From NCBI GenBank assembly GCA_963667915.2, contig CAXXNN010000003.1:482014-546013 (forward strand): DNA of 64,000 nt. The letters are read 5' to 3'. The position numbers and the translations under genes were made by a program. The notes beneath the pieces are model-generated. The model worked only from the letters and a program-made list of their open reading frames with translations. It was not told where the DNA came from and ran no database searches. Below are positions 5,334 to 62,961 of the stretch, one piece after another (position 1 is the stretch's first letter; each line of letters starts with the position of its first letter). This DNA comes from Vicinamibacterales bacterium (GTDB lineage: Bacteria; Acidobacteriota; Vicinamibacteria; Vicinamibacterales; UBA823).

Positions 5334-5400
5334 CGCGCCTTGCGGAACGGGCACCTCGACGGTCTCGGTGCGACGCGGAACTTCCACCACGGGCTGCTAG
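5334..5400 (-). repeat. Partial copy (right ~67 bp) of the same element family
   Basis: gcgccttgcggaacgggcacctcgacggtctcggtgcgacgcggaacttccaccacgggctgctag aligns with the right end of copy C. Confidence 0.7.
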
Positions 5401-5403
5401 ACT

Positions 5404-5505
5404 ATGAGGCAGATGGCGTGGCTTACCTGGACGCAGCTTGTGGGACTGACCGTGGTGCTGGGGCTGTTAGTCCTCGTCATGCTGGTGGGCTGGGCGACCG
5501 GCTAG
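5404..5505 (+). CDS. Candidate 33-aa single-TM micro-protein (not in ORF track)
   Basis: ATG 5404 to TAG 5503-5505; MRQMAWLTWTQLVGLTVVLGLLVLVMLVGWATG. High third-position GC. Stop abuts the miaA GTG. No SD. Confidence 0.2.
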   Translation: MRQMAWLTWTQLVGLTVVLGLLVLVMLVGWATG

Positions 5506-9470: not shown

Positions 9471-9653
9471 ATGCCGAATCCCAAACGGAGACATTCGAAG
9501 TCGCGTACGGCCAAGCGACGGACGCATCAGGTGCTGCAACCGACGCCGCTCGGTGAGTGTCCGCAGTGTCATGAGATGAAGCGGCCGCACCAGGTGTGTT
9601 CGCACTGCGGCTACTACAAGGGGCGGCAGGTGCGTGAGGTCGAGGAGGTGTAG
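9471..9653 (+). CDS. rpmF: 50S ribosomal protein L32
   Basis: MPNPKRRHSKSRTAKRR plus CPQC...CSHCG zinc ribbon. The TAG stop lies in the end of repeat copy A. Confidence 0.95.
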   Translation: MPNPKRRHSKSRTAKRRTHQVLQPTPLGECPQCHEMKRPHQVCSHCGYYKGRQVREVEEV

Positions 9654-9827
9654 CCTCCCGTGGAGGGCGTCCGGCGTCGCACCGAGGGTCCCTGATATTG
9701 AAGCCGCGGTCCGCCCGAGCCAGGCGCGACGAGTAAACATCTCGGGAATATGTGAATGAGCAGCCACGCCGCCCGCGGGGATGCAGCGCCGGCCGACTGC
9801 GGCCGGACTTCCACCACGGGCGGCTAG
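9651..9827 (+). repeat. CTAG-ended inverted-repeat element, copy A (MITE-like, ~177 bp)
   Basis: Ends tagcctcccgtgg... and ...ccaccacgggcggctag. Alignable by eye over its whole length with copy B. Confidence 0.8.
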
Positions 9828-9839
9828 CCGTTACGCGCC

Positions 9840-10826
9840 ATGTACGTTGCGATCGACGCGATGGGCGGCGACGCGGCCCCCCGCGCCATCGTCGACGGCG
9901 CGATGGTGGCGGCGCGGTATCTGAACGTCGGGTTGATTCTCATCGGCCGCGCAGACAGCTTGCGCGCGGATCTCGACCGGCATGCCGACGGCGCCTCAGT
10001 CGACGTCCGGGTCGTCGAGACGGACGATGCCGTCGGAATGGACGAATCGCCCGCCGCCGCGCTGCGGCGCAAGCCGCGCGCGTCGGTCCGGATCGCGGCC
10101 GACCTGGTGGCGTCAGGCGACGCCGGCGCGATGTTCAGTGCCGGGAATACGGGTGCCACGCTGCTCGCGGCCCACAGCGCCTTCGGCATGCTCTCCGGTG
10201 TTGACCGGCCTGCGCTCGCGACGACGATTCCGACCCTTCGGCAGGAAGCGGTGCTCCTGGATTCCGGTGCGAACGCGGCGTGCCGTCCGCAGCACCTCGT
10301 GCAGTTCGGGGTGATGGGCTCGGCGTATGCGCAGTTGGCGCTGCAGGTCGAGCGACCGAGAATCGGCCTGCTCTCGACCGGTGAGGAGGCGTCGAAGGGC
10401 AACGAGCTGACCCGTGAAGCGCACCGCTTGCTGTCGGCGGCCCTGCCGGAGTTCATCGGCAACGTGGAGGGCCGGCAAGTCTACGCCGGGCTGGCCGACG
10501 TGGTCGTGTGCGATGGATTCACGGGTAATGTCGCGCTGAAGATCAGCGAAGGATTGGTCGAGATGGTGGAGAAGTTGCTGCGAGACGAGCTGTCACGTAC
10601 GTTCAGCACACGCGTGGGATATTTGCTGTCGCGGCGGGCGTTTCGCCGCTTTCGGAAGCGGGTCGACTATTCGGAGTACGGTGGTGCCCCGCTGCTCGGC
10701 GTCGCCGGGCTGTGCGTGGTGGGCCACGGTCGGTCGTCGGCAAAAGCGGTTCGCAACGCGGTGGTGATGGCGTCCCGTCTCGCCGATGCGCGAATCGTCG
10801 AGCGGCTGGGCGAGCGGATGGCCTAG
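9840..10826 (+). CDS. plsX: Phosphate acyltransferase PlsX
   Basis: IAIDAMGGDAAP N-terminus, VCDGFTGNVALK motif; rpmF-plsX-fab linkage. Confidence 0.9.
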   Translation: MYVAIDAMGGDAAPRAIVDGAMVAARYLNVGLILIGRADSLRADLDRHADGASVDVRVVETDDAVGMDESPAAALRRKPRASVRIAADLVASGDAGAMFSAGNTGATLLAAHSAFGMLSGVDRPALATTIPTLRQEAVLLDSGANAACRPQHLVQFGVMGSAYAQLALQVERPRIGLLSTGEEASKGNELTREAHRLLSAALPEFIGNVEGRQVYAGLADVVVCDGFTGNVALKISEGLVEMVEKLLRDELSRTFSTRVGYLLSRRAFRRFRKRVDYSEYGGAPLLGVAGLCVVGHGRSSAKAVRNAVVMASRLADARIVERLGERMA

Positions 10827-11000
10827 CAGCCCGTGGTGAAAGTCCGGCGCCGCACCGAGGGCCCCTGATATTGAAGCCGCGGTTCGCCCGAGCGAGGCGT
10901 GACGAGTGAGCATATCGGAAATATTTGAATGAGGAGCAACGCGGCCAGCGGGGATGCATCGCCGGCCGAATGCAGCCCGACTTTCACCACGGGCTGCTAG
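10823..11000 (+). repeat. CTAG-ended inverted-repeat element, copy B (178 bp, perfect 22-bp TIR)
   Basis: ctagcagcccgtggtgaaagtc ... gactttcaccacgggctgctag. Confidence 0.85.
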
Positions 11001-11003
11001 GCT
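10995..11003 (+). promoter_or_regulatory. Candidate extended -10 TGcTAGGCT formed by the repeat end plus flank, 7 nt before the fabD ATG
   Basis: gggcTGCTAGGCTgacatcgATG. Confidence 0.25.
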
Positions 11004-11010
11004 GACATCG

Positions 11011-11937
11011 ATGCTGGCATTCATCTTTCCGGGGCAGGGTTCACAGCGGGTCGGGATGGGCCGGGCGCTCGTCGACGCCTATCCCGAATGCCGCGCCACG
11101 TTCGACGAGGCGGACGCGGCGCTCGGCGAGTCACTGTCCTCGCTGTGTTTCGAGGGACCCGCGGATCGGCTCACACTGACCGAGAATGCACAGCCCGCGA
11201 TCCTGGCGACCAGCGTCGCCATGTATCGCGTGCTGGCGGCGCGCGGCCTCGCGCCGGCTATCGTCGCGGGCCACAGTCTCGGCGAGTATTCTGCGCACGT
11301 CGCGGCAGGGACGCTGGCGTTTGCCGACGCGCTGGGCATCGTCAGACGGCGGGGACGGTACATGCAGGACGCGGTGCCGGTCGGGGATGGCGCCATGGCC
11401 GCGCTGGTGGGACTGGATGCCGATGCGGTGCGTCGTGCCTGTGCGGAGGCGGCCAACGGCGACGTGGTTGCTCCAGCCAATCTGAACGCGCCAGGCCAGA
11501 TCGTGATTGCCGGCGCGCGGGCGGCCGTGGCGCGGGCGGGAGAGGCCGCGAAGCGGCTCGGCGCGAGGCGCGTGATCCCGTTGGCGGTCAGCGCGCCGTT
11601 CCACTGCGCGCTGATGCAGCCGGCCGCGGATCGGCTGGCGCCAGAATTGCGCGCCGCGCGCACGGCCAATCCGCGGGTGCCGGTCGTCGCCAACGTCGAT
11701 GCGGAGCCCAAGCGGGACGGGCCGGCCGCCGTGGAGGCGCTCATCGGGCAGATCACCTCACCGGTGCTCTGGGAACAAGTCGTCCGGCGCCTTGCATCGG
11801 AGGGCGCGCGCACGTATGTTGAGGTGGGGCCGGGGTCGGTGCTCACCGGATTGATGAAGAGGATCGACCGCTCGCTGAAGGCGGTCTCGGCGGATAGCCT
11901 GCCCACGCTGGATCACGTCAAGGAATCGATTGGATAG
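11011..11937 (+). CDS. fabD: Malonyl-CoA:ACP transacylase
   Basis: FIFPGQGSQ and GHSLGEYSA active-site motifs. The upstream 57 nt of the tracked ORF is repeat sequence. Confidence 0.9.
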   Translation: MLAFIFPGQGSQRVGMGRALVDAYPECRATFDEADAALGESLSSLCFEGPADRLTLTENAQPAILATSVAMYRVLAARGLAPAIVAGHSLGEYSAHVAAGTLAFADALGIVRRRGRYMQDAVPVGDGAMAALVGLDADAVRRACAEAANGDVVAPANLNAPGQIVIAGARAAVARAGEAAKRLGARRVIPLAVSAPFHCALMQPAADRLAPELRAARTANPRVPVVANVDAEPKRDGPAAVEALIGQITSPVLWEQVVRRLASEGARTYVEVGPGSVLTGLMKRIDRSLKAVSADSLPTLDHVKESIG

Positions 11938-28266: not shown

Positions 28267-28380
28267 CTCTAGTAACTCTAACGTGCCAAGTAGTTTATCC
28301 CGGCGCTGTCGCCAACGGCAAACAGCAGGACCACCGGTCGGGCACGGCCCGTGTTCAGCGGGCTGAATGCAGCGGGACTG

Positions 28381-31080
28381 TTACCTCGGGCTGCTCGAGC
28401 GCCGCAGCAACTGGCGGACGACCCCCGGGGTCTCGGCGAGCATTGTGTCGATCCGTGCAAGGTCCTTACCGCCGGCTTCGGCGAACTCCGCCCGCCCGCC
28501 GCCGCCGCCGCCCACCAGCGGCGCCAGGGCCTTGACGACCTGTCCGGCCGGGACGCGGGTCGTGAGGTCGTCGGTCACGTTCACGACGATGGCGACGCGT
28601 CCGGCGTCGGTCGCCGACGCCAGGACGACCAGGCCGGACGCCAGCTCGCCCTTCAAGGAGTCCGAGAGTGTTCGCAGGGCGCGCCGGTCCAGGCTGTCGG
28701 CGCGCCGCGTGACGAGCCTGATGCCGTCGATGTCCATCTGGCCGCCCGCGGCCGCGCCGGTTCCGGCCGCGAGCTTGAGCTTCAGATCGCGCACCTCGCG
28801 TGTCAGTTGCTTCACCCGCGCCTGCTGTTGGGCGAGCGCGTCGGCCGCTTGGTCTTCGGAGGTGGCCAAGGCGTGGAGGAGCTGTCGTAGCACCGCGCGG
28901 CGAGCCTGGGCCCGATCCAGTGCGGCCGTGCCGGTCACGGCCTCGACCCGCCGGATGCCGGCCGCGGTCCCCGTTTCCTGTTCGATCGAGAACGCGCCGA
29001 TCTCGCCCGTCGACCGGCAGTGCGTGCCCCCGCATAGTTCCTTGCTGAATCCGGAAATCGAGACGACCCGCACGCGCTCGCCGTACTTCTCTCCGAACAG
29101 GGCGATTGCCCCGGCGGCGATCGCCTCCTGCGGCGTCTGTTCGAGCGTCTCGACCGGGGCCGCGTTCAGGATCTGCCGGTTGACCAGTCGCTCGACTTCC
29201 TCGATCTCGCCGGGAGACACCGGCGCCGGATGCGCGAAGTCGAAGCGCAATCGGTCCGGCGCGACCAGCGACCCGGCTTGCTTCGCGTGGGTGCCGAGTA
29301 CCTGCTGCAGCGCTGCATGCAAGAGATGGGTTGCCGTGTGGTTACGCCGGATCGCGTCGCGACGGTCGGTATCGACTGCCGCCGCGACGACGTCGCCGCG
29401 GCTCAACGTTCCGGCCGTGACCCGGACCTTGTGTAGCCTGGGGTGCCCGCCCCAGCCGGTCATGCCGAGGACGGTCGCGCGGCGCGTGCCGTCACCGCTC
29501 ACGATCGTGCCCGTATCGGAGACCTGCCCTCCCGATTCGAGGTAGAAGGGCGTCCGGTCCAGCGCCAGGTAGCCGGTATCGCCCTCATGGAGCTGTTCTC
29601 GGGCCGCCGGTGCGTCGTTCCAGATCATCAGGATCGTCGCGCCGTCGACCGCCGTTCGGTCGTAGCCCTCGAAGCGGTCGCCGGCGGTTTCGAGCTCGGG
29701 CGCCAACTCCGCCGGGACGCCAAAACTCGGCGCATCGACGGCTTTGGCTTTGAACCTGCTTGCGGCTCGGGCCCGCTCGCGCTGGTCCGTCATCAGACGC
29801 TCGAAGCCTTCCCAGTCGATCGCCAGGTGCCGTTCACTCGCCAGATCCTCCACGAAATCAGCCGGCAGGCCGAGCGAATCGTACAACCGGAAGACGTCCT
29901 CGCCGGCGATTCGCTGATCGCCGGCCGCGGCGCGGGCCAGCACCTCCTCGAGTTTGGGCAGCCCGGCCGTGAGCACCGCGTCGAACCGGTCCTCCTCCCG
30001 GCGCACCGCGACCGCGATCGACGGGCAGTCCCGCGCGAGCGTCGGATAGGCGTGCTGCATCTCGTTGACGACGACGTCGACCAGGCGGTGGAGGAACGGC
30101 TCGGTGAGGCCCAGTCGCTTCCCATGGCGCATGGCGCGCCGCATGATCTTTCTGAGGACGTATCCTCGCCACTCGTTCGACGGCGTCACCGAATCGCCGA
30201 TCAGAAAGGTCGTCGCGCGGACGTGGTCGGCGACGACCCGCATCGACACATCGGTCTCGGACCCGGCGCCGTAGCGCGTGCCGGCCATGTCGGCGATAGC
30301 GCGGAGCAGTGGTTGAAACAGATCCGTGTCGTAGCTGGACTGCACGCCCTGCAGAACGGTCGCCGCGCGCTCCAGGCCCATGCCGGTGTCAATCGAGGGG
30401 GTCGGCAGTGGCACGAGCGAGCCGTCGTCCTGCCGGTCGAATTCCATGAACACGATGTTCCACAACTCGATGTAGCGGTCGCAGTCGCAGGCGGGTCCCA
30501 GGCAGGTTGGTGCGGCGCACGGTTGGTCATCGCCCTGATGAAAATGAATCTCCGAGCATCGGCCGCAGGGGCCGGTGTCGCCCATCGCCCAGAAGTTGTC
30601 GACGGCGCCCAGGGCGTCGATTCGGTCGGCCGGCAGGAACCGGCGCCAGAGATCGTAGGCCTCATCGTCCCGCGGCGTGCGCGCGTCACCCTCGAACACG
30701 GTAGCTCGGAGACGATCGGCCGGGAGCCCCCACTCGTCGACCAGCAGCGTCCAGGCCATGGCGGTCGCTTTGTCCTTGAAGTAGTCGCCGAACGAGAAGT
30801 TCCCGAGCATCTCGAAGAAGGTGTGGTGCCGCAACGAGCGGCCGACCATGTCGAGGTCGTTGTGCTTTCCACTGACGCGCATGCATTTCTGCGTCTTCGC
30901 CGCGCGCGTGTAGTCGCGGCGCTCGCGGCCCTGGAACACCGCCTTGAACTGATTCATCCCGGCGTTGGTGAAGAGCAGCGTGGGGTCGTCTTCGGGGACG
31001 AGCGACGCGCTGTCGACAATGCGGTGACCGAGCCGCTCGAAGTAGTCGAGGAAGCTGCGCCGGGTGTCGCGGGCGTTCAT
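28381..31080 (-). CDS. alaS: Alanyl-tRNA synthetase
   Basis: RHHTFFEMLGNFSFGDYFK motif, editing-domain HTATHLLH, C-terminal GGGGGR motif. Confidence 0.95.
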   Translation of the reverse strand: MNARDTRRSFLDYFERLGHRIVDSASLVPEDDPTLLFTNAGMNQFKAVFQGRERRDYTRAAKTQKCMRVSGKHNDLDMVGRSLRHHTFFEMLGNFSFGDYFKDKATAMAWTLLVDEWGLPADRLRATVFEGDARTPRDDEAYDLWRRFLPADRIDALGAVDNFWAMGDTGPCGRCSEIHFHQGDDQPCAAPTCLGPACDCDRYIELWNIVFMEFDRQDDGSLVPLPTPSIDTGMGLERAATVLQGVQSSYDTDLFQPLLRAIADMAGTRYGAGSETDVSMRVVADHVRATTFLIGDSVTPSNEWRGYVLRKIMRRAMRHGKRLGLTEPFLHRLVDVVVNEMQHAYPTLARDCPSIAVAVRREEDRFDAVLTAGLPKLEEVLARAAAGDQRIAGEDVFRLYDSLGLPADFVEDLASERHLAIDWEGFERLMTDQRERARAASRFKAKAVDAPSFGVPAELAPELETAGDRFEGYDRTAVDGATILMIWNDAPAAREQLHEGDTGYLALDRTPFYLESGGQVSDTGTIVSGDGTRRATVLGMTGWGGHPRLHKVRVTAGTLSRGDVVAAAVDTDRRDAIRRNHTATHLLHAALQQVLGTHAKQAGSLVAPDRLRFDFAHPAPVSPGEIEEVERLVNRQILNAAPVETLEQTPQEAIAAGAIALFGEKYGERVRVVSISGFSKELCGGTHCRSTGEIGAFSIEQETGTAAGIRRVEAVTGTAALDRAQARRAVLRQLLHALATSEDQAADALAQQQARVKQLTREVRDLKLKLAAGTGAAAGGQMDIDGIRLVTRRADSLDRRALRTLSDSLKGELASGLVVLASATDAGRVAIVVNVTDDLTTRVPAGQVVKALAPLVGGGGGGRAEFAEAGGKDLARIDTMLAETPGVVRQLLRRSSSPR

Positions 31081-34046: not shown

Positions 34047-35000
34047 CTACTGCAGTTCGCGGCAAAACGGACAGCGGTCGGTTCGCGCTTGCAGCGGCTT
34101 CCGGCAGTGCCAGCAGAAGCGAGGTGGCGGGCTCACTCGGCCGGCCGCCGGAGCGGCACCGGTCACGGAGCGCTCGCGGCGTGCAGCTGCCCGGAGCGGC
34201 GCGCGCGGTCGCTCGGCGATCAGGTCGTCCAGCAGGTCGCTGGCGCGCTGATAGCGCTGGGCGATGTCCGGCGCCATTGCCCGCATCACGATGTCGCTGA
34301 TCCGGGTCGGAATCTTCCGGTTCTTCAGGCGGGGCGCCGTCACCAGCGTGCCGCGCATGAGTTTCTCGAGATCGGCTGGGGTGGGCGTGTCGTACGGCAG
34401 CATCCCCGTGAGCATCTGGTACATCGTGACGCCGAGCGAATAGATGTCCGAGGCGAAGACCACCCTTCCGTGAAACTGCTCGGGTGCCATGTACGGCGGA
34501 CTGCCGATGATTGTCGTGCCGTGCGCCGCGATTTCGAGAAAGCGCGACGTGCCGAAGTCGGCGACCTTCACCACGCCGCTCGAGGAGACCAGCACGTTCG
34601 CCGGACGCAGATCGCGATGCAGGACGCCCTGCCGATGGGCGTGGTCGACGGCGTTGCAAATCTGGCACGTGAAGTCGAGCGCGCGGCTCAGGTCCACGGC
34701 GCCGCTCGTGGCGATGATCTGCTCGAGGGTCTCCCCGGGCACGTATTCCATCACGATAAAGAACACGCTGTCCTGCTTTTCGGCCGTCGTGATGGACACG
34801 ACGTTGGGATGGTTCAGGCTCGCGAGCAGCCGCGGTTCGCGCAGCAACTCTCCGAAGTCCAGGTTCTGACGGTGGGGAACCTTGAGGGCGACCTGCTTGT
34901 CGATCCAGGTGTCGGTGGCCAGGTAGACCGTGCCGAAGCCTCCGCTGCCAAGGGGTTCGATGACCTTGTACTTGCCGAGGGTCTGACCGCGAACCAGCAC
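34047..35000 (-). CDS. Ser/Thr protein kinase (canonical catalytic motifs) with C-terminal zinc-ribbon
   Basis: GSGGFGTVY, VALKV, HRDLRPANVL, DFG, APE motifs; CWHCRKPL...CPFC tail; GTG start. Confidence 0.85.
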   Translation of the reverse strand: MLVRGQTLGKYKVIEPLGSGGFGTVYLATDTWIDKQVALKVPHRQNLDFGELLREPRLLASLNHPNVVSITTAEKQDSVFFIVMEYVPGETLEQIIATSGAVDLSRALDFTCQICNAVDHAHRQGVLHRDLRPANVLVSSSGVVKVADFGTSRFLEIAAHGTTIIGSPPYMAPEQFHGRVVFASDIYSLGVTMYQMLTGMLPYDTPTPADLEKLMRGTLVTAPRLKNRKIPTRISDIVMRAMAPDIAQRYQRASDLLDDLIAERPRAPLRAAARRERSVTGAAPAAGRVSPPPRFCWHCRKPLQARTDRCPFCRELQ

Positions 35001-35011
35001 GGCGTTGAGTA

Positions 35012-35070
35012 TAGCAGCCCGTCGTGAAAGGCCGGCCGCGTTCGGCCCGCGATGTTGCGGGTGGGCGACT
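35012..35070 (-). repeat. Truncated copy (left TIR plus ~35 bp) of the same family
   Basis: tagcagcccgtcgtgaaaggccggccgcgttcggcccgcgatg... aligns with the start of copy C. Confidence 0.55.
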
Positions 35071-35903: not shown

Positions 35904-37034
35904 TCAGCCAAAGATGTCTTTGACGCGCTCGAAGAATGGCCGATCGGATTCTGCGGCACCTTGGGTTCGCGGCTCGGCCTTGTGATCGTGCATCGTGCTG
36001 GCGAGTTGCTCGAGCAGCGCGCGCTGGTCCTTCGAGACCTGACGTGGCGTGTCGACCATCAGCTCCACGAAGAGGTCGCCGCGGCCTCGGCCGCTGACGT
36101 TCGGCATGCCCTTGCCCTTCAGGCGGACCCGCGTGCCGGCCTGCGTGCCTTTCGGGACGGCGACTCGCGCGTCGCCGTTCAGCGTCGGTATCGAGACGTC
36201 GCCGCCAAGGACCATCGTCGGGTAGGGCACTGGAACGGCGCACAGGAGATCGTCACCGTCCCGCCGGAAGAATTCGTGCTCGCCGACGTGGATGACCACA
36301 TAGAGGTCGCCGGGCGGGGCGCCGCGGTCGCCCAATTCGCCCTCGCCCTGCAGGCGCAATCGCTGGCCGGTCGAAATGCCCGCCGGGATCTTCACCGTGA
36401 GCTTGCGCTCGTGGGGCGTACGTCCGGCGCCCCGGCAGGTGTCGCAGGGCTTGGTGATCACGCGGCCGCGGCCGCGGCATTGCCCACACGTGCGTGCCAC
36501 CGTGAGGAAGCCCTGCTGATACCGGAGCTGCCCCCTCCCGCCGCACTGGGGGCAGGTTTCCGGCCTACTGCCGGGCGCCGCGCCCGAACCCTGACAGGTC
36601 TGGCACGGCTCTTCGCGGGGCAGCTGCAGCGTCGTCTCCGCGCCGCGCGCCGCATCCTCGAAGGGAATCTCGAGGTCGTACCGCAGGTCGGCGCCGGGCC
36701 GCGGCCCCGAGCGCCGCCGGCCGCCGAAGCCGAAGATGTCGCCCAGCCCGCCGAGGATGTCGCCGAAATCCTCGAAGATCGTCGGGTCGACGCCGCCGCC
36801 CGGTGTGGCACCAAGCCCCGCGTGGCCGAAGCGGTCGTACATGCCCCGTTTCTGATCGTCGGCGAGCACGGCGTACGCCTCCGCCGCTTCTTTGAACCGT
36901 TCCTCGGCGGCGGTGTCGTCGGGATTGCGGTCAGGGTGGTACTTGAGGGCGAGCTTGCGGTAGGCGCTCTTGATGTCCTGGGCACGCGCGTCCCGGCCGA
37001 CGCCCAGCACGTCATAGTAGTCACGTTTACTCAC
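35904..37034 (-). CDS. dnaJ: Chaperone DnaJ
   Basis: J-domain KYHPDRNP, Gly-rich linker, four CxxCxG zinc motifs. Confidence 0.95.
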
Positions 37035-39700: not shown

Positions 39701-42001
39701 CTAGGGCCGGTGTAGATGGCAATACACGACCGGCTCGCTGCCGGTCAGGAAGCTCTCGGTGAGGACTGCCGGACACTCCGGGCGGGCCAGCTCACCCGTC
39801 GTCGGATCGATCGCCACGAACCCGATGCCGATCGGCACGTCGAACGTTTTGGCCCGCTGGCCGGCGAGCGCGCTCGCCATGAAGGTCGTCCAGATCGGCA
39901 GCGCGGCCTGACTCCCGGAGAGTCCGAGTGGCTGGTTGTCATCCAGGCCGACCCAGACGACGGTCAGTAGGTCGGGCGTGAAGCCGACGAACCAGGCGTC
40001 GCGCAGGTCGTTGGTGGTCCCAGACTTTCCGGCGGCGTCGAGCCAGAAGCCGGCGGCGCGAACCGCCGCCGCCGTGCCGTCGCGCAGGACGCTCCGCATC
40101 ATATTGGTCACGAGATAGGTCACGTCCGGACGGGCGACCCGCCGAGGTTGTGCGGCGGGTGTCTCGATGTCGCGGTCGCCGTCGCGGATCGACCGGATGA
40201 CCCGCAATGGACGATGCACGCCGTTTGTCGCCAGGACGCCGTACGCGCTGGCCATTTCAAGCGGCGTGGTTTCGAAAGCGCCGAGTGCGATTGATGGATA
40301 GGGATCGATTGGACTGCCGCCGACGCGCTGCCAAAGCGCGGCCAGCCGGTCGTAGCCGGCCATTTCGGCGACCTTGACGGCGGCGACGTTGCGCGAGCGG
40401 GCCAGCGCCTGGCGCAGCGTGATCGGACCGTCGTACTGGCCGCCGTAGTTGTCGGGGCGCCAGAGTCGCGCGTCGTCGATGAACGTCGTCGGCTCGTCGT
40501 AGACAACCGTGGCCGGGGTGAAGTCGGTGCGATGGTCGAGGAACGCGCGCTCGAAGGCCGCCAGGTAGACGAATGGCTTGAACACCGAGCCGGGCTGGCG
40601 CCGAGCGTGTGTCGCCCGGTTGAACTGCGACTGGCCGTACGCGCGGCCGCCGACGAGCGCCAGGATCTCCCCCGTGCGGGGATTGGTGGCGATCAGCGCT
40701 GCCTGGGCGGTGCGCCCATTCGCCGTGAGCCGTCGATCCACGGCATCGAGCCCGTCGCGGACCGCCCGCTGGGCGAGGCGCTGCAGGTGGAGGTCGAGCG
40801 TCGTCCGGACGACGACCGGCGCGGTCGAGCGCATCAACTCCGGGTGTCGGTCCGATATCACCTGGCCGACGACGTCTACGAAGTAGGGGGCTTCGTCTTC
40901 GAGGGCGAAGGACGTGACGACGAGCGGCTGGACTATCGCCGCGCTCATCGCAGCCGCCGAGACGAAGCCGGCGTCGCTCATCGCCTGCAGGACGACGTCC
41001 CGTCGTGCCCGGGCGCGATCGGGATGCCGGAACGGCGAGTAGGTCTGGGGCGCCTGGATGACGCCGGCGATTGTCGCGGCCTCGGGCAGCGACACATTGG
41101 CGACATCCTTGCCGAAGAAGATCCGGGCCGCTTCGGCGACGCCGTGAATGGCGAATGATCCGCGGTGACCGAGGTACACTTCGTTCACATACAGCTCGAG
41201 GATTTCGGCCTTCGTGAGCCGCTGCTCCAAGCTCACCGACAACAGTTGTTCCGTGATCTTCCGGCGAAGCGTCTTCTCAGGCGTCAACAGCGTGTTCTTG
41301 ACGAGCTGCTGGGTGAGCGTGCTGCCGCCGACGAGGTACGGCCGGTCACCGATCAGGTTCGTGACGAGTGCGCCCACCATCCTGAGCGGGTCCACACCGG
41401 CGTGCTCGTAGAACCGGCGATCCTCGATCGCAAGCACGGCGTGAATCATCGGCTCCGGAATGTCGTCGAGCGCCGTGGGCCGCCGCTTCTGCCTGGCGGC
41501 CTCGCCGAGCGACGTGAGGAGCGGCGCTTCGAGGTCGAGCCGGCTCAGTCGTTCGCCGCCGACGATCTGCAGCCGGCGCACCCGCGGGTCGGCCAGTCTC
41601 CGCGTGAAGTGAATCCGGACGATCTGTCCGGCGTAGGTGCCGCCGCTGGGGGCGAGGACGACCGTGTCCGGACCGATCGTGAATTGTCTTGGCTGGCTGG
41701 CGCGGGGTCGCTCCTTATACCCCAGCACGTTCAGTCGGGCCACCAGCTGCGCCGGCGTCATCGCTTGCCCTTCCCAGAGCTCGAGGGGTCGAGCGAACAC
41801 CTGGAGCCTAGGTGGGTGTCGGTCGGGGCGCAGCCGGTCGTCGAGATCCGCGGCCAGGCGAATGACTCCGTAACCAAACGTGACGCCGCCTGCGACCAGG
41901 ACCAGGCCGGTCGAGACGAGGAGGGCGCGCAGCGTCGACCGTCGGTGCCGGGCCGGTCGGCGGCGCCGCCGGCGTACGCGAATCCGGAGTGGTTTGGGCA
42001 T
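39701..42001 (-). CDS. mrcA: Class A penicillin-binding protein (transglycosylase/transpeptidase, PBP1A-type)
   Basis: IEDRRFYEH and GGSTLTQQL glycosyltransferase motifs, SVFKP (SxxK) and KSGTTND (KTG-type). Start at 42001; the upstream 46 codons of the tracked ORF are repeat-element sequence. Confidence 0.85.
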   Translation of the reverse strand: MPKPLRIRVRRRRRRPARHRRSTLRALLVSTGLVLVAGGVTFGYGVIRLAADLDDRLRPDRHPPRLQVFARPLELWEGQAMTPAQLVARLNVLGYKERPRASQPRQFTIGPDTVVLAPSGGTYAGQIVRIHFTRRLADPRVRRLQIVGGERLSRLDLEAPLLTSLGEAARQKRRPTALDDIPEPMIHAVLAIEDRRFYEHAGVDPLRMVGALVTNLIGDRPYLVGGSTLTQQLVKNTLLTPEKTLRRKITEQLLSVSLEQRLTKAEILELYVNEVYLGHRGSFAIHGVAEAARIFFGKDVANVSLPEAATIAGVIQAPQTYSPFRHPDRARARRDVVLQAMSDAGFVSAAAMSAAIVQPLVVTSFALEDEAPYFVDVVGQVISDRHPELMRSTAPVVVRTTLDLHLQRLAQRAVRDGLDAVDRRLTANGRTAQAALIATNPRTGEILALVGGRAYGQSQFNRATHARRQPGSVFKPFVYLAAFERAFLDHRTDFTPATVVYDEPTTFIDDARLWRPDNYGGQYDGPITLRQALARSRNVAAVKVAEMAGYDRLAALWQRVGGSPIDPYPSIALGAFETTPLEMASAYGVLATNGVHRPLRVIRSIRDGDRDIETPAAQPRRVARPDVTYLVTNMMRSVLRDGTAAAVRAAGFWLDAAGKSGTTNDLRDAWFVGFTPDLLTVVWVGLDDNQPLGLSGSQAALPIWTTFMASALAGQRAKTFDVPIGIGFVAIDPTTGELARPECPAVLTESFLTGSEPVVYCHLHRP

Positions 42002-42051
42002 CAGTGTCGGCGGCGGACGGCCAGTCGCTGCTATCTGGGCCGGTGGGGCGC

Positions 42052-42229
42052 CGACCAGCCCGTGGTGAAAGTCCCGCTGCATTCGACCGCCGATGCATCC
42101 CGCCATGGGCGGCGCTGGGCTTTGTTCACGATGGGTCAAATACTCCCGGTATTTTCCCTCCTCGCGCCTTGCGGGGTGGGCGCCTCGGCGGCCTCGGTGC
42201 CACGCTGGACTTTCACCACGGACTGCTAG
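42052..42229 (-). repeat. CTAG-ended inverted-repeat element, copy C (inverted orientation)
   Basis: cagcccgtggtgaaagtc ... gactttcaccacggactgctag. Interior matches the reverse complement of copies A and B. Confidence 0.8.
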
Positions 42230-42230
42230 C

Positions 42231-42993
42231 CCTACTTATCGGTCGATGGCGGCAGGCCGCGCACGGCGCGGCCCGCGCGGAAGCGGTGCGGGGCGTTTGG
42301 GGTCCCCGCGAGCGCCCGAGCCGGGGTGTGGGGGGTTGGGCCTGCTGATCGGTCGATGGCGGCAGGCCGCGCACGGCGCGGCCCGCGCGGAAGCGGTGCG
42401 GGGCGTTTGGGGTCCCCGCGAGCGCCCGAGCCGGGGTGTGGGGGGTTGGGCCTGCTGATCGGTCGATGGCGGCAGGCCGCGCACGGCGCGGCCCGCGAGG
42501 GCGCGGTGCGGGGCGTTTGGGGTCCCCGCGAGCGCCCGAGCCGGGGTGTGGGGGGTTGGGCCTGCTGATCGGTCGATGGCGGCAGGCCGCGCACGGCGCG
42601 GCCCGCGCGGAAGCGGCGCGGGGCATTCGGGGTCCCCGCGAGCGCCCGAGCCGGGGTGTGGGGGGTTGGGCCTGCTGATCGGTCGATGGCGGCAGGCCGC
42701 GCACGGCGCGGCCCGCGAGGGCGCGGTGCGGGGCGTTTGGGGTCCCCGCGAGCGCCCGAGCCGGGGTGTGGGGGGTTGGGCCTGCTGATCGGTCGATGGC
42801 GGCAGGCCGCGCACGGCGCGGCCCGCGAGGGCGCGGTGCGGGGCGTTTGGGGTCCCCGCGAGCGCCCGAGCCGGGGTGTGGGGGGTTGGGCCTGCTGATC
42901 GGTCGATGGCGGCAGGCCGCGCACGGCGCGGCCCGCGAGGGCGCGGTGCGGGGCGTTTGGGGTCCCCGCGAGCGCCCGAGCCGGGGTGTGGGG
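42231..42993. repeat. Tandem satellite, 110-bp unit x ~6.9
   Basis: Unit starts at 42241, 42351, 42461, 42571, 42681, 42791 and 42901. Units are nearly identical, with two haplotypes differing at 3 positions. Confidence 0.95.
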
Positions 42994-43005
42994 CAGAGCC
43001 CCACT

Positions 43006-44703
43006 CTAAGGAGTGATGAGCCAGTGGTGACGCGGATCGAGGGGCAGCTCGGCGAGCAGGCGCTCGACGAGGCCCGGGCCGTAGCGGTTCAGGAAGCCGA
43101 TGGAGCCCAGCGTGCGTTCCTGCGGATGGCCGTCGGGAAAGGCCTGGGTGCGGGCGCGCGTGAACTGGCGGCGCAGTGTTTCGTCGCGACGTTTCGCCGC
43201 CTGGAGAACCTTGTGGTGGAGCGTCTTCAGGTCCTTCTCCATGCGCCCGAGCGTCGAGCGGGCCGCGCCCGCCAACGTCGGATCGACCGCGGGTACCACG
43301 TTGGCGATCGTGCCGAGCCGCTCCTGGAGCGCGCGGCGGGCGTCGTCGATCGCTTGCTCGACCGACGGGGGCAGCTGCGCCTCCAACAGACGGTTGAGGG
43401 CGGCTTCGTCCTGCGGCTGGAGCGCTTCGAACGGCAGGTGGTGGCGGGTCAAGAACTTGAAGCTGGCCGAGTCGACGAGCGTGGCGCTGTCGCGCGCGTG
43501 AATGAGCGGCATCGGCAGCTCGAAGTGCTCGTAGACGGTCTTCAGCTGGGCGAGGTAGGCGAGCTCGCTCGGTCCGGCCACGTAGCAGACCGTCGGAAAC
43601 AAGCTGTCCTGGACCAGCGGCCGCAGCAGGACGTTCGGACTGAACTGCCCCGGGTGACGCTCGAGCAGGCCGAGCAATTCGTTGCCGTCAGTTGGACGGT
43701 CACCGACGGTGAATCCGTCGGCCGTTCGCCGGATGGCGGCCCTGGCGCCGTCGACATGAAACAGCGCCACGCTGTCCGGGTGCGGCGTCACCTGGGCGTG
43801 GTACCCCTCTGCCGTCAGGGCCGCGCCGGCCTCGGTGGCCAGTGTCGCGGTGCGAACGTCACGCAGCTCACGCTCGAAGAGGCCCCGCACGAACGGCTTG
43901 GCGGCCGGATCGTACGAGTCGAAGACGATCAGACCGTGCCGCCCGAGGACCGCTTCCAGCCAGCGCCCGAAGGCGTCGGCCATGCCGGCGCCGCGCGGGT
44001 ACGCGCGGCGAAGCTGGTCGAGGACCGGGCCCGTGAATTCGGTCGGCGGGAGCGTCCCACCGAGCGCGTCCAGCACCTGCTCGACGTCCTGGCCGATCTT
44101 CAAGGCTCCGATCGGCGCGGCGCCGGCACCGGGCGGCGGGCTCAGCGTCAGGCGCTGGAGCTGCCCGTCGGCGTCGAGCACCGCGCACGAGGCCACCTCC
44201 TCCCAGTCGTGGTCCTCCGCGTCGATCCAGAACACCGGCACGGCGGGGACGCCGTACGTCTGGGTGGCCCGCGCCGCGAGCTGGATAGCGGTCAGGGCTT
44301 TCAACAGCGTGTAGAGGGGGCCGCCGAACAGGCCGGCCTGCTGGCCGGTGACGATCGCAACCGTGTCGGGCGATCGAAGCCGCTCGACCGCGGCGGCCGC
44401 CTCGGGCGGCGCCTCGCGTCCGTGCTGCTGCGCGACAAGGACGTCGGCGAATTCGGCGGGCGGGCGCACCGTCGTGCGACGGGCGATCGCGGCGCGCCAG
44501 TCCGACGCGTCCGAGGGATCACCGGCGAAGAACGGGGCGAGCGTCGAGAAATCGGTGGCGTAGTCGGCAGCCAGACGGCGGATCCAGGGGAACCGACTGA
44601 TGTCGATCGCGTGTTGCACCGACGTGTCTGAGGGAATCACGAATCCGGAGAGTACCGTGGTCTGATTAGACTGTCTCAGAGCCCCGCGCGACCTGTCAAG
44701 CAA
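43006..44703 (-). CDS. bshC: Bacillithiol biosynthesis cysteine-adding enzyme BshC
   Basis: TGQQAGLFGGPLYTLLKALTAIQLA signature. True start uncertain (alternative GTG 44640). Confidence 0.75.
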   Translation of the reverse strand: MLDRSRGALRQSNQTTVLSGFVIPSDTSVQHAIDISRFPWIRRLAADYATDFSTLAPFFAGDPSDASDWRAAIARRTTVRPPAEFADVLVAQQHGREAPPEAAAAVERLRSPDTVAIVTGQQAGLFGGPLYTLLKALTAIQLAARATQTYGVPAVPVFWIDAEDHDWEEVASCAVLDADGQLQRLTLSPPPGAGAAPIGALKIGQDVEQVLDALGGTLPPTEFTGPVLDQLRRAYPRGAGMADAFGRWLEAVLGRHGLIVFDSYDPAAKPFVRGLFERELRDVRTATLATEAGAALTAEGYHAQVTPHPDSVALFHVDGARAAIRRTADGFTVGDRPTDGNELLGLLERHPGQFSPNVLLRPLVQDSLFPTVCYVAGPSELAYLAQLKTVYEHFELPMPLIHARDSATLVDSASFKFLTRHHLPFEALQPQDEAALNRLLEAQLPPSVEQAIDDARRALQERLGTIANVVPAVDPTLAGAARSTLGRMEKDLKTLHHKVLQAAKRRDETLRRQFTRARTQAFPDGHPQERTLGSIGFLNRYGPGLVERLLAELPLDPRHHWLITP

Positions 44704-60908: not shown

Positions 60909-61121
60909 TTCTCCCTCTCCCTCCGGGAGAAGGTTGGGGTGAGGGCGAAGACGATCGCCCTCCCCGTCCCCCTCTCCCTCTGGGAGAGGGTTGGGGTGAG
61001 GGGCGAAGACGATCGCCCTCCCCGTCCTCCCTCTCCCTCCGGGAGAGGGTTGGGGTGAGAGACGAAGACGATCGCCCTCCCCGTCCCCCTCTCCCTCTGG
61101 GAGAGGGTTGGGGTGAGGGCG
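60909..61121. repeat. Tandem ~58-bp double-hairpin repeat x ~3.6
   Basis: Unit ccctctccctc[c/t]gggagagggttggggtgagggcgaagacgatcgccctccccgtc. Hairpins ccctctcc/ggagaggg and gagggcg/cgccctc. Confidence 0.9.
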
Positions 61122-61578: not shown

Positions 61579-61609
61579 GGCAAGGTTCGGCTGGGTGAGC
61601 GGGAGTAAC

Positions 61610-62961
<1,352 letters not shown>

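Follow-up and report, generated by a model that had tools for sequence, protein, structure and literature searches.

Copy-number variation in a tandem array between bshC and a penicillin-binding protein gene, and its probable derivation from a dispersed family of three-hairpin elements in Vicinamibacterales-like Acidobacteriota

The stretch of DNA analysed here (referred to below as the window) consists of 64,000 nucleotides from a contig of a Vicinamibacterales bacterium, and this work is concerned with a tandem array (42231..42993) that lies in it between the gene for the bacillithiol biosynthesis cysteine-adding enzyme (bshC) and that for a class A penicillin-binding protein (PBP). Both of these genes are on the minus strand, while the G-rich strand of the array is the plus strand of the window. 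Tandem Repeats Finder (TRF) describes the array by a period of 110, 6.9 copies, 97% matches, 0 indels and a score of 1428, and it was also delineated by in-register comparison of the units and by a repeat finder (family D1). The units are arranged head to tail, with starts at 42231, 42341, 42451, 42561, 42671, 42781 and 42891; when compared in register with unit 2 they differ from it at 0-3 positions, and the variants of the unit follow each other in the order A A B A' B B B. An earlier reading made from the letters alone (the sequence-only reading) had described a seven-copy array of this period between these two genes, made up of nearly identical units in the same order of variants, and the TRF result, the in-register units and the Pfam assignments of the flanking genes all agree with that description. 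Its estimate of about 80% G+C was likewise accurate, as the measured value is 80.5%, against 68.0% for the window, with a GC skew in the array of +0.26. Based on the results that follow, the array probably represents a copy-number-variable, non-coding minisatellite formed by one member of a dispersed family of ~100-nt three-hairpin elements present in Vicinamibacterales-like Acidobacteriota.

The first structural feature of each unit is a hairpin, P1 (GGCCGCGC-ACG-GCGCGGCC), which in unit 1 is located on the plus strand at 42255..42273 and which recurs each 110 nt (viz. at 42365, 42475, 42585, 42695, 42805 and 42915). Its 7 exact matches are all within the array, whereas shuffled sequences gave 0.06, in accordance with the earlier statement that every unit holds such a hairpin. 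It is followed by a bipartite stem, P2 (in unit 1 at 42276..42323, plus strand), which was recognized from motif matches and from covariation in the family, and which consists of a variable outer stem (P2a), an inner stem GCGGGG/CCCCGC and an enclosed loop C(G/A)UU(U/C)GGGGU. The core motif of P2, GGGGCRTTYGGGGTCCCCGCG, is found at 42290-42310 and again at each 110 nt. As read from the sequence, variant B, in which AGGGC replaces CGGAA, restores a perfect 6-bp P2a stem (GGGCGC/GCGCCC), while variant A' has the family-consensus loop CATTC and matches the units of L004, a conspecific contig described below.

A third hairpin, P3 (GTGGGGC-AGA-GCCCCAC, followed by the tail TCTAA), is complete only in the last unit, where it occupies 42988..43004 on the plus strand; it ends 1 nt from the stop codon of bshC (43006-43008), and its tail overlaps this codon. 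Thus the last copy does not break off near the end of the array, as had been supposed, but runs into a complete hairpin. The last unit, which is the one nearest to bshC, is a complete element, and the best match of the covariance model (see below) in the window is to this unit (42903-43023, 74 bits). In the internal units of the window lineage P3 is reduced to GTGGGGGGTTGGGCCTGCTGATC. At the other end of the array, a remnant of the leftmost partial unit (42042..42052, plus strand), consisting of the degenerate P3 arm GGTGGGGCGCC, was identified by comparison with L004. In that contig the flank upstream of the array, GGTGGGGCGCC-AGCCCTACTATCGG, aligns with the junctions between L004's own units (GTGGGGCGCCTCGCCCAGCTGATCGG...), which comprise a P3-like hairpin and the family tail CTGAT and are homologous to the flank upstream of unit 1. 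Because the junctions are thus a degenerate P3 with its tail, the repeating unit consists of the whole element and a linker of ~15-20 nt. Slippage between two GTGGGG repeats had been considered as the origin of the array, and this proposal was revised, as the junction is itself a degenerate P3 with its tail.

The possibility that the array is coding was rejected. There is no Pfam match for its two long open reading frames (ORFs), no gene was called in the bshC-PBP spacer on any of three contigs, the period is 110 in the window and 111 in a sister strain, and the plus-strand frames are closed, all of which bears out the view that the ORFs in this region are artefacts. It had further been stated that all six frames stay open. 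This is essentially correct for the three minus frames, but each plus frame of the array has 2 stops, because the TGA of CTGATC rotates through the frames every 330 nt.

When metagenomes of the Joint Genome Institute (JGI) were scanned with the 21-mer GGGGCRTTYGGGGTCCCCGCG, which is common to the window, L004 and a more distant relative (L006), 34 loci were found, and the homology around the motif reaches 80-100 nt. Related genomes had been proposed as the place to look for the unit, and this search uncovered a dispersed, structurally conserved family at many loci. In a MAFFT alignment of 38 copies, the family on its G-rich strand shows the following organization: a hairpin P1 of the form GGCGCGC-loop-GCGCGCC, with which P1 of the array aligns; P2a, an outer stem of ~9 bp that is variable; internal loops of P2 that are rich in purines (GGA/GGA or GGA/GA); P2b (GYGGGG/CCCCGC), which closes a conserved 10-nt loop, CAUUCGGGGU; a G-tract, UGGGGUU; and P3 (CGGGGC-GCA-GCCCCG), with an A/T-rich tail (TCTGAGTAA...). 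The terminal hairpin of the array aligns with this P3 and the TCTGA that follows it. The three-hairpin structure pairs 86% of the alignment cells, as compared with 37-59% when the partners are slid. Changes on both sides were observed in 15 pairs, against 7.2 in shuffled alignments, and 15 was reached in none of 500 shuffles (0/500). For P2a, 8 of the 9 pairs change on both sides. These compensatory changes support the three-hairpin fold, and the predicted fold is conserved in the family, in a manner suggesting that its members are kept foldable as a single strand of either DNA or RNA.

A covariance model of the family (R1) gave 47 strong matches in 342 kb of sequence; together with the motif scan it places these copies on ~35 Acidobacteriota metagenome contigs, mostly singly and sometimes in tandem. 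Several contigs carry copies on both strands (e.g. three copies in L021 and four in L032), the copies within one contig are mutually diverged, and in 21 kb of a 4.5-Mb contig (L054; ERZ25766727 ctg362376) there are two copies. On the basis of a crude gene call that relies on G+C at third codon positions (GC3), from which both gene context and orientation were taken, all copies of the family are intergenic, and in their orientation to the neighbouring genes 17 are same/same, 9 opposite/opposite, 7 convergent and 3 divergent. The neighbours are unrelated housekeeping genes (thioredoxin-like, subtilase, sigma factor, cytochrome c, RF-1 and TrkA). The RF-1 beside one marine-type copy shares 95% identity with a protein of an Acidobacteriota metagenome-assembled genome (MAG) and 84% with one of a Vicinamibacterales MAG. 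Tandem copies are also present at independent loci, viz. in L020 (period 111), in L033 (period 124) and in L024; L014 represents the same locus as L020 (99.8% identical), and L020 ends inside the array. No match to GGGGCRTTYGGGGTCCCCGCG was seen in a scan of viral contigs and none to the family in plasmids. For an array-specific 21-mer from the linker/P1 edge, ATCGGTCGATGGCGGCAGGCC, the species-representative genomes yielded two chance matches (in a Planctomycetota MAG and in Bradyrhizobium), neither of which could be extended.

The distribution of the family is patchy, orientation-independent and intergenic, and its patchiness can be seen where orthologous junctions with and without the element are compared. 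At the junction of ThiS and prfA, the element is present in L019 and, in 1.5 copies, in L039, while it is lacking in L051 and L052, where the spacer is 9 nt, as well as in L053 and L054. Filled and empty orthologous sites of this kind indicate patchy presence, as expected of an element that is gained and lost. On L054, a 373-aa ORF lacking a Pfam match is present in three copies within 21 kb of the 4.5-Mb contig (1602-2723, 8785-9906 and 12678-13799); one of these is flanked by thiS and prfA, the reverse transcriptase of a group II intron is encoded nearby, and the ORF may be an unannotated insertion sequence.

At the bshC-PBP locus itself, the gene order kinase, bshC, PBP, xdhC, hrcA, grpE and dnaJ is retained among relatives, and three conspecific contigs, whose flanks are 97.5-99% identical, carry three different alleles of the spacer. 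The window has 7 regular units of 110 bp. The second allele, in L043 (ERZ28669063 ctg49628), is made up of window-type units, with six cores spaced by 28, 95, 110, 119 and 73 nt. The third allele, in L004 (ERZ28669063 ctg10935), consists of 3 units, each 111 bp long, whose junctions differ in sequence from those of the window. The array is real, is made of copies of a family member and is length-polymorphic between conspecific strains (7, about 6 in the irregular allele, and 3 units), and the suggestion that it is a variable-number tandem repeat (VNTR) is supported by this behaviour. In L043, the edge of the array (2785-2817) has a tandem duplication of 15 bp (CTCCTTAGAGTGGGG), the bshC stop codon being part of the duplicated segment, and this duplication is either a further sign of local slippage or assembly noise. 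L004 also has, between the PBP gene and xdhC (10393-11787), an insertion sequence encoding a DDE_Tnp_1/DUF772 transposase of 464 aa, which is missing from the window and from L043.

In more distant relatives the element is either lacking or differently placed. The bshC spacer is 124 nt long in L005 (90% BshC identity) and 94-172 nt in L045-L047 (73% BshC identity), and it is devoid of the element in all of these contigs, in which the covariance model also gave zero matches over ~20 kb around bshC. In L006 and L007 (75% BshC identity), the spacer contains two related elements, in the opposite orientation relative to bshC, together with a miniature inverted-repeat transposable element (MITE) that differs from the one next to the array. 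The MITE-like element of L006 (7640-7850) has the terminal inverted repeats CTAGAACCGGTTTCA(T/C)AACTG.

The DNA next to the array contains several features that need to be distinguished from it. The bshC gene (43006..44703, minus strand, stop codon TAG at 43006-43008) is identified by Pfam PF10079 (3.7e-87) and PF24850, and the PBP gene (39701..42001, minus strand) by the Transgly and Transpeptidase domains. Between the PBP gene and the array lies a MITE-like element of ~177 bp (42053..42229, with no strand assigned), which has the terminal inverted repeats (C)CAGCCCGTGGTGAAAGTCC ... GGACTTTCACCACGGACTGCTAG and which ends in CTAG (42226-42229) directly before the array, as had been reported. 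This MITE is inserted in the left edge of the array, within the leftmost partial unit, from which it splits off the remnant at 42042-42052; it is because of this location that the array seems to begin right after the CTAG. The MITE is an insertion polymorphism, as it is present in the window and in L043, while L004 has an empty site. Its CTAG ends are reminiscent of targets of the IS630/Tc1-mariner type. The public gene call for the PBP starts at 42082, i.e. inside the MITE. However, the true start is likely the ATG at 42001-41999, because this ATG and the sequence around it are also present in the MITE-free L004, in which the crude gene call gives an ORF of 766 aa, the same length as that obtained in the window from the ATG at 42001. 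Elsewhere in the window this MITE has inverted and direct matches at 9648-9827 and 10818-11002, and partial ones at 5334-5405, 28365-28397 and 34994-35036; members of this MITE family are ~180 bp long, with terminal inverted repeats of ~23 nt (CTAGCAGCCCGTGGTGAAAGTCC). The family to which the array belongs was also considered as a MITE in its own right, and this was rejected, since comparison of filled and empty sites revealed neither terminal inverted repeats nor a target-site duplication; the MITE at 42053-42229 is a separate element.

The window has a second tandem array (60913-61119; period 58, 3.6 copies, 93% identical), located ~480 nt upstream of the genes for tRNA-Gly and tRNA-Cys (61599-61767). 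It is built on the hairpin CCCTCTCCC-TCYG-GGAGAGGG, followed by GGTTGGGGTGAGGG, and it is another repeat of the same genome that resembles the repetitive extragenic palindromic (REP) type.

Regarding the source of the DNA, exact occurrences of the BshC and PBP proteins of the window were found only on one metagenome contig of the European Nucleotide Archive (ENA), viz. ERZ28763718 ctg74713 (177 kb). This public record (L001) has 7 units as well, and it differs from the window by 3 substitutions, of which 2 are inside the array, and by one extra C and one missing G in homopolymers (at window positions 36526 and 34736). Long-read assembly typically produces homopolymer indels of this kind. In the public gene calls they split dnaJ and a Ser/Thr kinase gene, both of which are intact in the window, and the window is 100% identical to L043 over 3.6 kb around this region. 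Where homologues of BshC are recorded with an organism name, they come from MAGs of Vicinamibacterales or Acidobacteriota.

Taken together, these observations are most readily accommodated by the following sequence of events. The full element, whose parts on the G-rich strand are ordered as P1, the long stem P2, P3 and an A/T-rich tail (TCTGA...), lies in this species tail-on against the stop codon of bshC, in an orientation antisense to both bshC and the PBP gene. The element with its ~15-20 nt linker (110-111 bp in total) would then have been amplified in tandem, and its copy number would have changed by replication slippage or by unequal recombination between units, processes that presumably also homogenise the units and would account for their concerted evolution. 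The internal P3 hairpins may have decayed in the window lineage. On this account, the family as a whole would behave like REPs or mycobacterial interspersed repetitive units (MIRUs), being gained and lost at single intergenic sites in both orientations. As for its consequences at the locus, the array would form a stack of stable stem-loops in the 1-kb spacer between bshC and the PBP gene, which might hinder read-through or the 3' exonucleolytic decay of the bshC transcript, and we infer that such an effect, passive at most, is the most likely one here.

The family is previously uncatalogued, as it has no match in Rfam 15 and its core sequence appears in no paper of the literature searched. The gathering-threshold scan of the window with Rfam 15 reported two tRNAs only, an E-value scan of 41900-43200 gave matches at chance level only (E = 0.5 and 6.3), nothing was obtained at E <= 1 for nine member loci, and a full-text literature search for the core sequence retrieved only unrelated papers. 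The assertion that standard annotation offers no explanation for the array is therefore upheld, no Pfam or Rfam model fitting it.

A number of points weigh against the interpretation of the array as a slippage-driven minisatellite of a dispersed structured family. All of the copy numbers, for the window, L043 and L004 alike, are based on assemblies, and the irregular allele of L043 could partly be an assembly error. Within the window the family is confined to the array: with filters off, R1 gave no further copy, its next best match scoring 12.6 bits (E = 0.76). The assignment of the folding strand is weak, the G-rich strand being only weakly favoured: in paired positions G.T exceeds A.C by 49 to 21, or by 28 to 21 when one conserved wobble pair is left aside. 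The conservation seen in the 21-nt core is in part artefactual, as the loci were found by this pattern, although the extra copies recovered by the covariance model do vary in this core. No transposase was found among 10 neighbouring ORFs scanned against Pfam, on contigs that are genome fragments, and neither terminal inverted repeats nor a target-site duplication could be discerned between filled and empty sites at the ThiS-prfA and bshC-PBP junctions. Lastly, the near-constant period (98-124 nt) at independent loci could mean that the tandems arise from the element's own mechanism of insertion and not from slippage.

Among the other explanations that have to be weighed, one ascribes a function to the family itself. 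In this case the family would be a functional RNA or single-stranded DNA (ssDNA) module of ~100 nt, with the conserved P2 loop CAUUCGGGGU and the GGA/GGA internal loop as the parts recognised by a dedicated protein, which could be an enzyme that mobilises the element or one that regulates after transcription; the arrays would serve as multivalent binding platforms or as insulators between genes. We regard this as unlikely, if still worth serious thought. The sequence-only reading had taken variability between near-identical strains, combined with a lack of expression signal, as the mark of a neutral VNTR, and the alleles described above point towards such a VNTR, while the conserved structure of the family leaves room for a function.

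A different origin for the array is envisaged if the element is a non-autonomous ssDNA element that is moved in trans by an enzyme resembling those of IS200/IS605 or the REP-associated tyrosine transposases (RAYTs), each new copy inserting preferentially beside the tail of a resident one and so giving rise to head-to-tail arrays. Such a transposase-built array would fit the patchy presence at orthologous sites and the different orientations in different species, the conserved structure (as for a substrate recognised by its hairpins), the similar periods at independent loci (110/111, 111 and 124) and the retention of the family tail CTGAT at every unit junction. However, the Pfam scan detected no tyrosine or HUH transposase (0/10 neighbouring ORFs), GTAG is absent and there is no consistent CGTC tag, the copies within a contig are diverged and so do not look like recent bursts, and alleles with partial units (the 1.5 copies of L039 and the truncated units of L043) resemble products of slippage or deletion. 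Considering all of this, we think it quite improbable that the array was built in this manner.

The proposal that the array encodes small structured RNAs was among those made initially. It would imply that transcription of the plus strand, antisense to bshC, gives small RNAs from a set of genes or one multivalent RNA, comparable to the NsiR1 model and with a functional P2 loop. The structure supported by covariation, the conserved U.G wobble on the G-rich strand, where G.T also outnumbers A.C, and the combination of purine-rich internal loops with a conserved 10-nt loop, which is typical of protein- or RNA-binding RNA motifs, are all in keeping with it. However, the region 41800-43300 contains zero sigma-70-type promoters and intrinsic-terminator-like sites, with the proviso that acidobacterial promoters may not fit the consensus; there is no Rfam family; the orientation of the family to neighbouring genes is mixed; and between near-identical strains the copies range from 3 to 7, one allele being internally deleted. 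In addition, the folding energies of single units are close to those of shuffled controls (z-scores from +0.5 to -2.4, which are uninformative alone). This proposal is not favoured, because no promoter or terminator was detected for the units and their folding energies are near those of shuffled sequences, and we consider it to be very unlikely.

Still less probable, in our assessment, is that the array acts as double-stranded DNA, i.e. as a series of sites for a regulator or nucleoid protein (e.g. the near-palindrome CGGGGTCCCCG), or as G-quadruplex DNA through which transcription or replication in the interval from bshC to the PBP gene would be modulated. In its favour one can cite the conservation of the core, near-palindrome included, the G4Hunter profile, with a peak of 1.88 in each unit and 10% of the 25-nt windows above 1.5, and the GC skew. 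However, double-stranded sites do not need the intramolecular pairing that the compensatory changes maintain, the family is found beside unrelated genes that form no common regulon, and most of the G-tracts are tied up in strong hairpins. No canonical G3+ quadruplex motif with loops of up to 12 nt was found in the array. Thus, of the G-quadruplex potential attributed to the units earlier, a moderate propensity stands, whereas they do not constitute a strong G-quadruplex array.

Some known structures were also considered and rejected. Integron attC sites do not apply, as there are neither R/L boxes nor a cassette array; a hammerhead-like core does not apply, since the tail CUGAGUA misfits CUGANGA and Rfam is negative; and P3 is not an intrinsic terminator, there being no U-tract after it. 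Finally, the notion that a mis-assembly inflated a single element into an array, for which it can be said that the source is a metagenome assembly and that the homopolymer indels of the public record reveal imperfect base-level quality, deserves hardly any credence, in view of the order in which the variants follow each other (A A B A' B B B), the 7 units in both versions of the source contig, the tandem arrangement of the same locus on two further contigs of another sample, and the tandem copies of the family in unrelated JGI assemblies.

In terms of known systems, the array is to be filed among interspersed structured repeats that form minisatellites, and those closest to it in behaviour are the MIRU-VNTR loci of Mycobacterium tuberculosis, with REPs and the bacterial interspersed mosaic elements (BIMEs) also being close. 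MIRUs are tandem repeats of 46-101 bp at 41 loci, of which 12 are variable (PMC3914561), and in comparison with them the 110-bp unit is slightly longer. The likeness consists in intergenic units of tens to ~100 bp, which are found at many loci of a GC-rich genome, head to tail and with a copy number that varies between strains. Tandem copies occur here as 7 x 110 bp and as 2-3 copies at L020, L033, L024 and L039, and the units number 7, about 6 and 3 on flanks that are 97.5-99% identical. In contrast to MIRUs, the acidobacterial family belongs to another phylum, occurs mostly as single copies, has a covarying three-hairpin structure and lies in both orientations to genes. MIRUs, which are located within operons, were reportedly described by Supply et al. 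in 1997 as carrying small, translationally coupled ORFs that overlap the stop codon of one flanking gene and the start codon of the other. Such an overlap of ORFs is not seen in the present family, as a period of 110 is not divisible by 3, stops close the plus frames at intervals of 330 nt and the orientation is mixed.

REPs are single imperfect palindromes of 20-40 bp with an unpaired GTAG/CGTC tag at one end, which are thought to act as DNA or RNA hairpins (PMC3733652). The family shares with REPs and BIMEs that it lies outside genes, is GC-rich, forms hairpins and has multiple copies (up to 4 on one contig), that it is found in both orientations and often after stop codons, that its abundance varies between related genomes and that its copies are sometimes clustered. 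However, its members are not simple palindromes but elements of ~100 nt, in which three distinct hairpins accompany a core that is not palindromic. GTAG is not conserved, and CGTC is found only within the CCCCG-TCTGA of one subfamily and is missing from the window and from the soil-type copies. Likewise, whereas REPs are mostly head-to-head dimers and often linked to RAYTs, the array is strictly head to tail, all of its units (7/7) being on one strand and not alternating in orientation as in BIMEs, and no RAYT was seen. The tandem NsiR1 arrays of cyanobacteria, in which each repeat is said (Ionescu et al. in 2010) to have its own promoter and terminator and to give a discrete small RNA, are similar in being direct, intergenic tandem repeats of a short structured unit, but they differ from the present array, in which a consensus scan found no promoter- or terminator-like signals and whose family is dispersed and not restricted to a single locus. 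With CRISPR (clustered regularly interspaced short palindromic repeats) arrays, the array has in common regularly spaced repeats that contain hairpins; however, unique spacers are lacking, each unit directly adjoins the next and the neighbourhood has no cas genes, and it had rightly been judged not to be a CRISPR array.

The Vicinamibacterales-type Acidobacteriota are abundant in soils and in the deep ocean, and genetically they have hardly been studied. For this group, the work described here provides a consensus of the family, a covariance model that works and a structure of three hairpins for which covariation gives support. The arrays can be of use as strain-level markers, allowing VNTR typing of uncultured populations. 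They probably also cause contigs of short-read assemblies to break (L020 ends in one), and the elements lead to spurious ORF calls, as illustrated by a 33-aa 'gene' inside one copy in L054, in addition to the PBP start that was called inside the MITE. If it is true that the loop binds a protein, or that the element moves as ssDNA, then the family would open the way to a new system in this phylum, either mobile or regulatory, and should the family prove to be a functional module of the kind considered above, it would constitute a new class of acidobacterial regulatory or mobile element that is borne on repeats.

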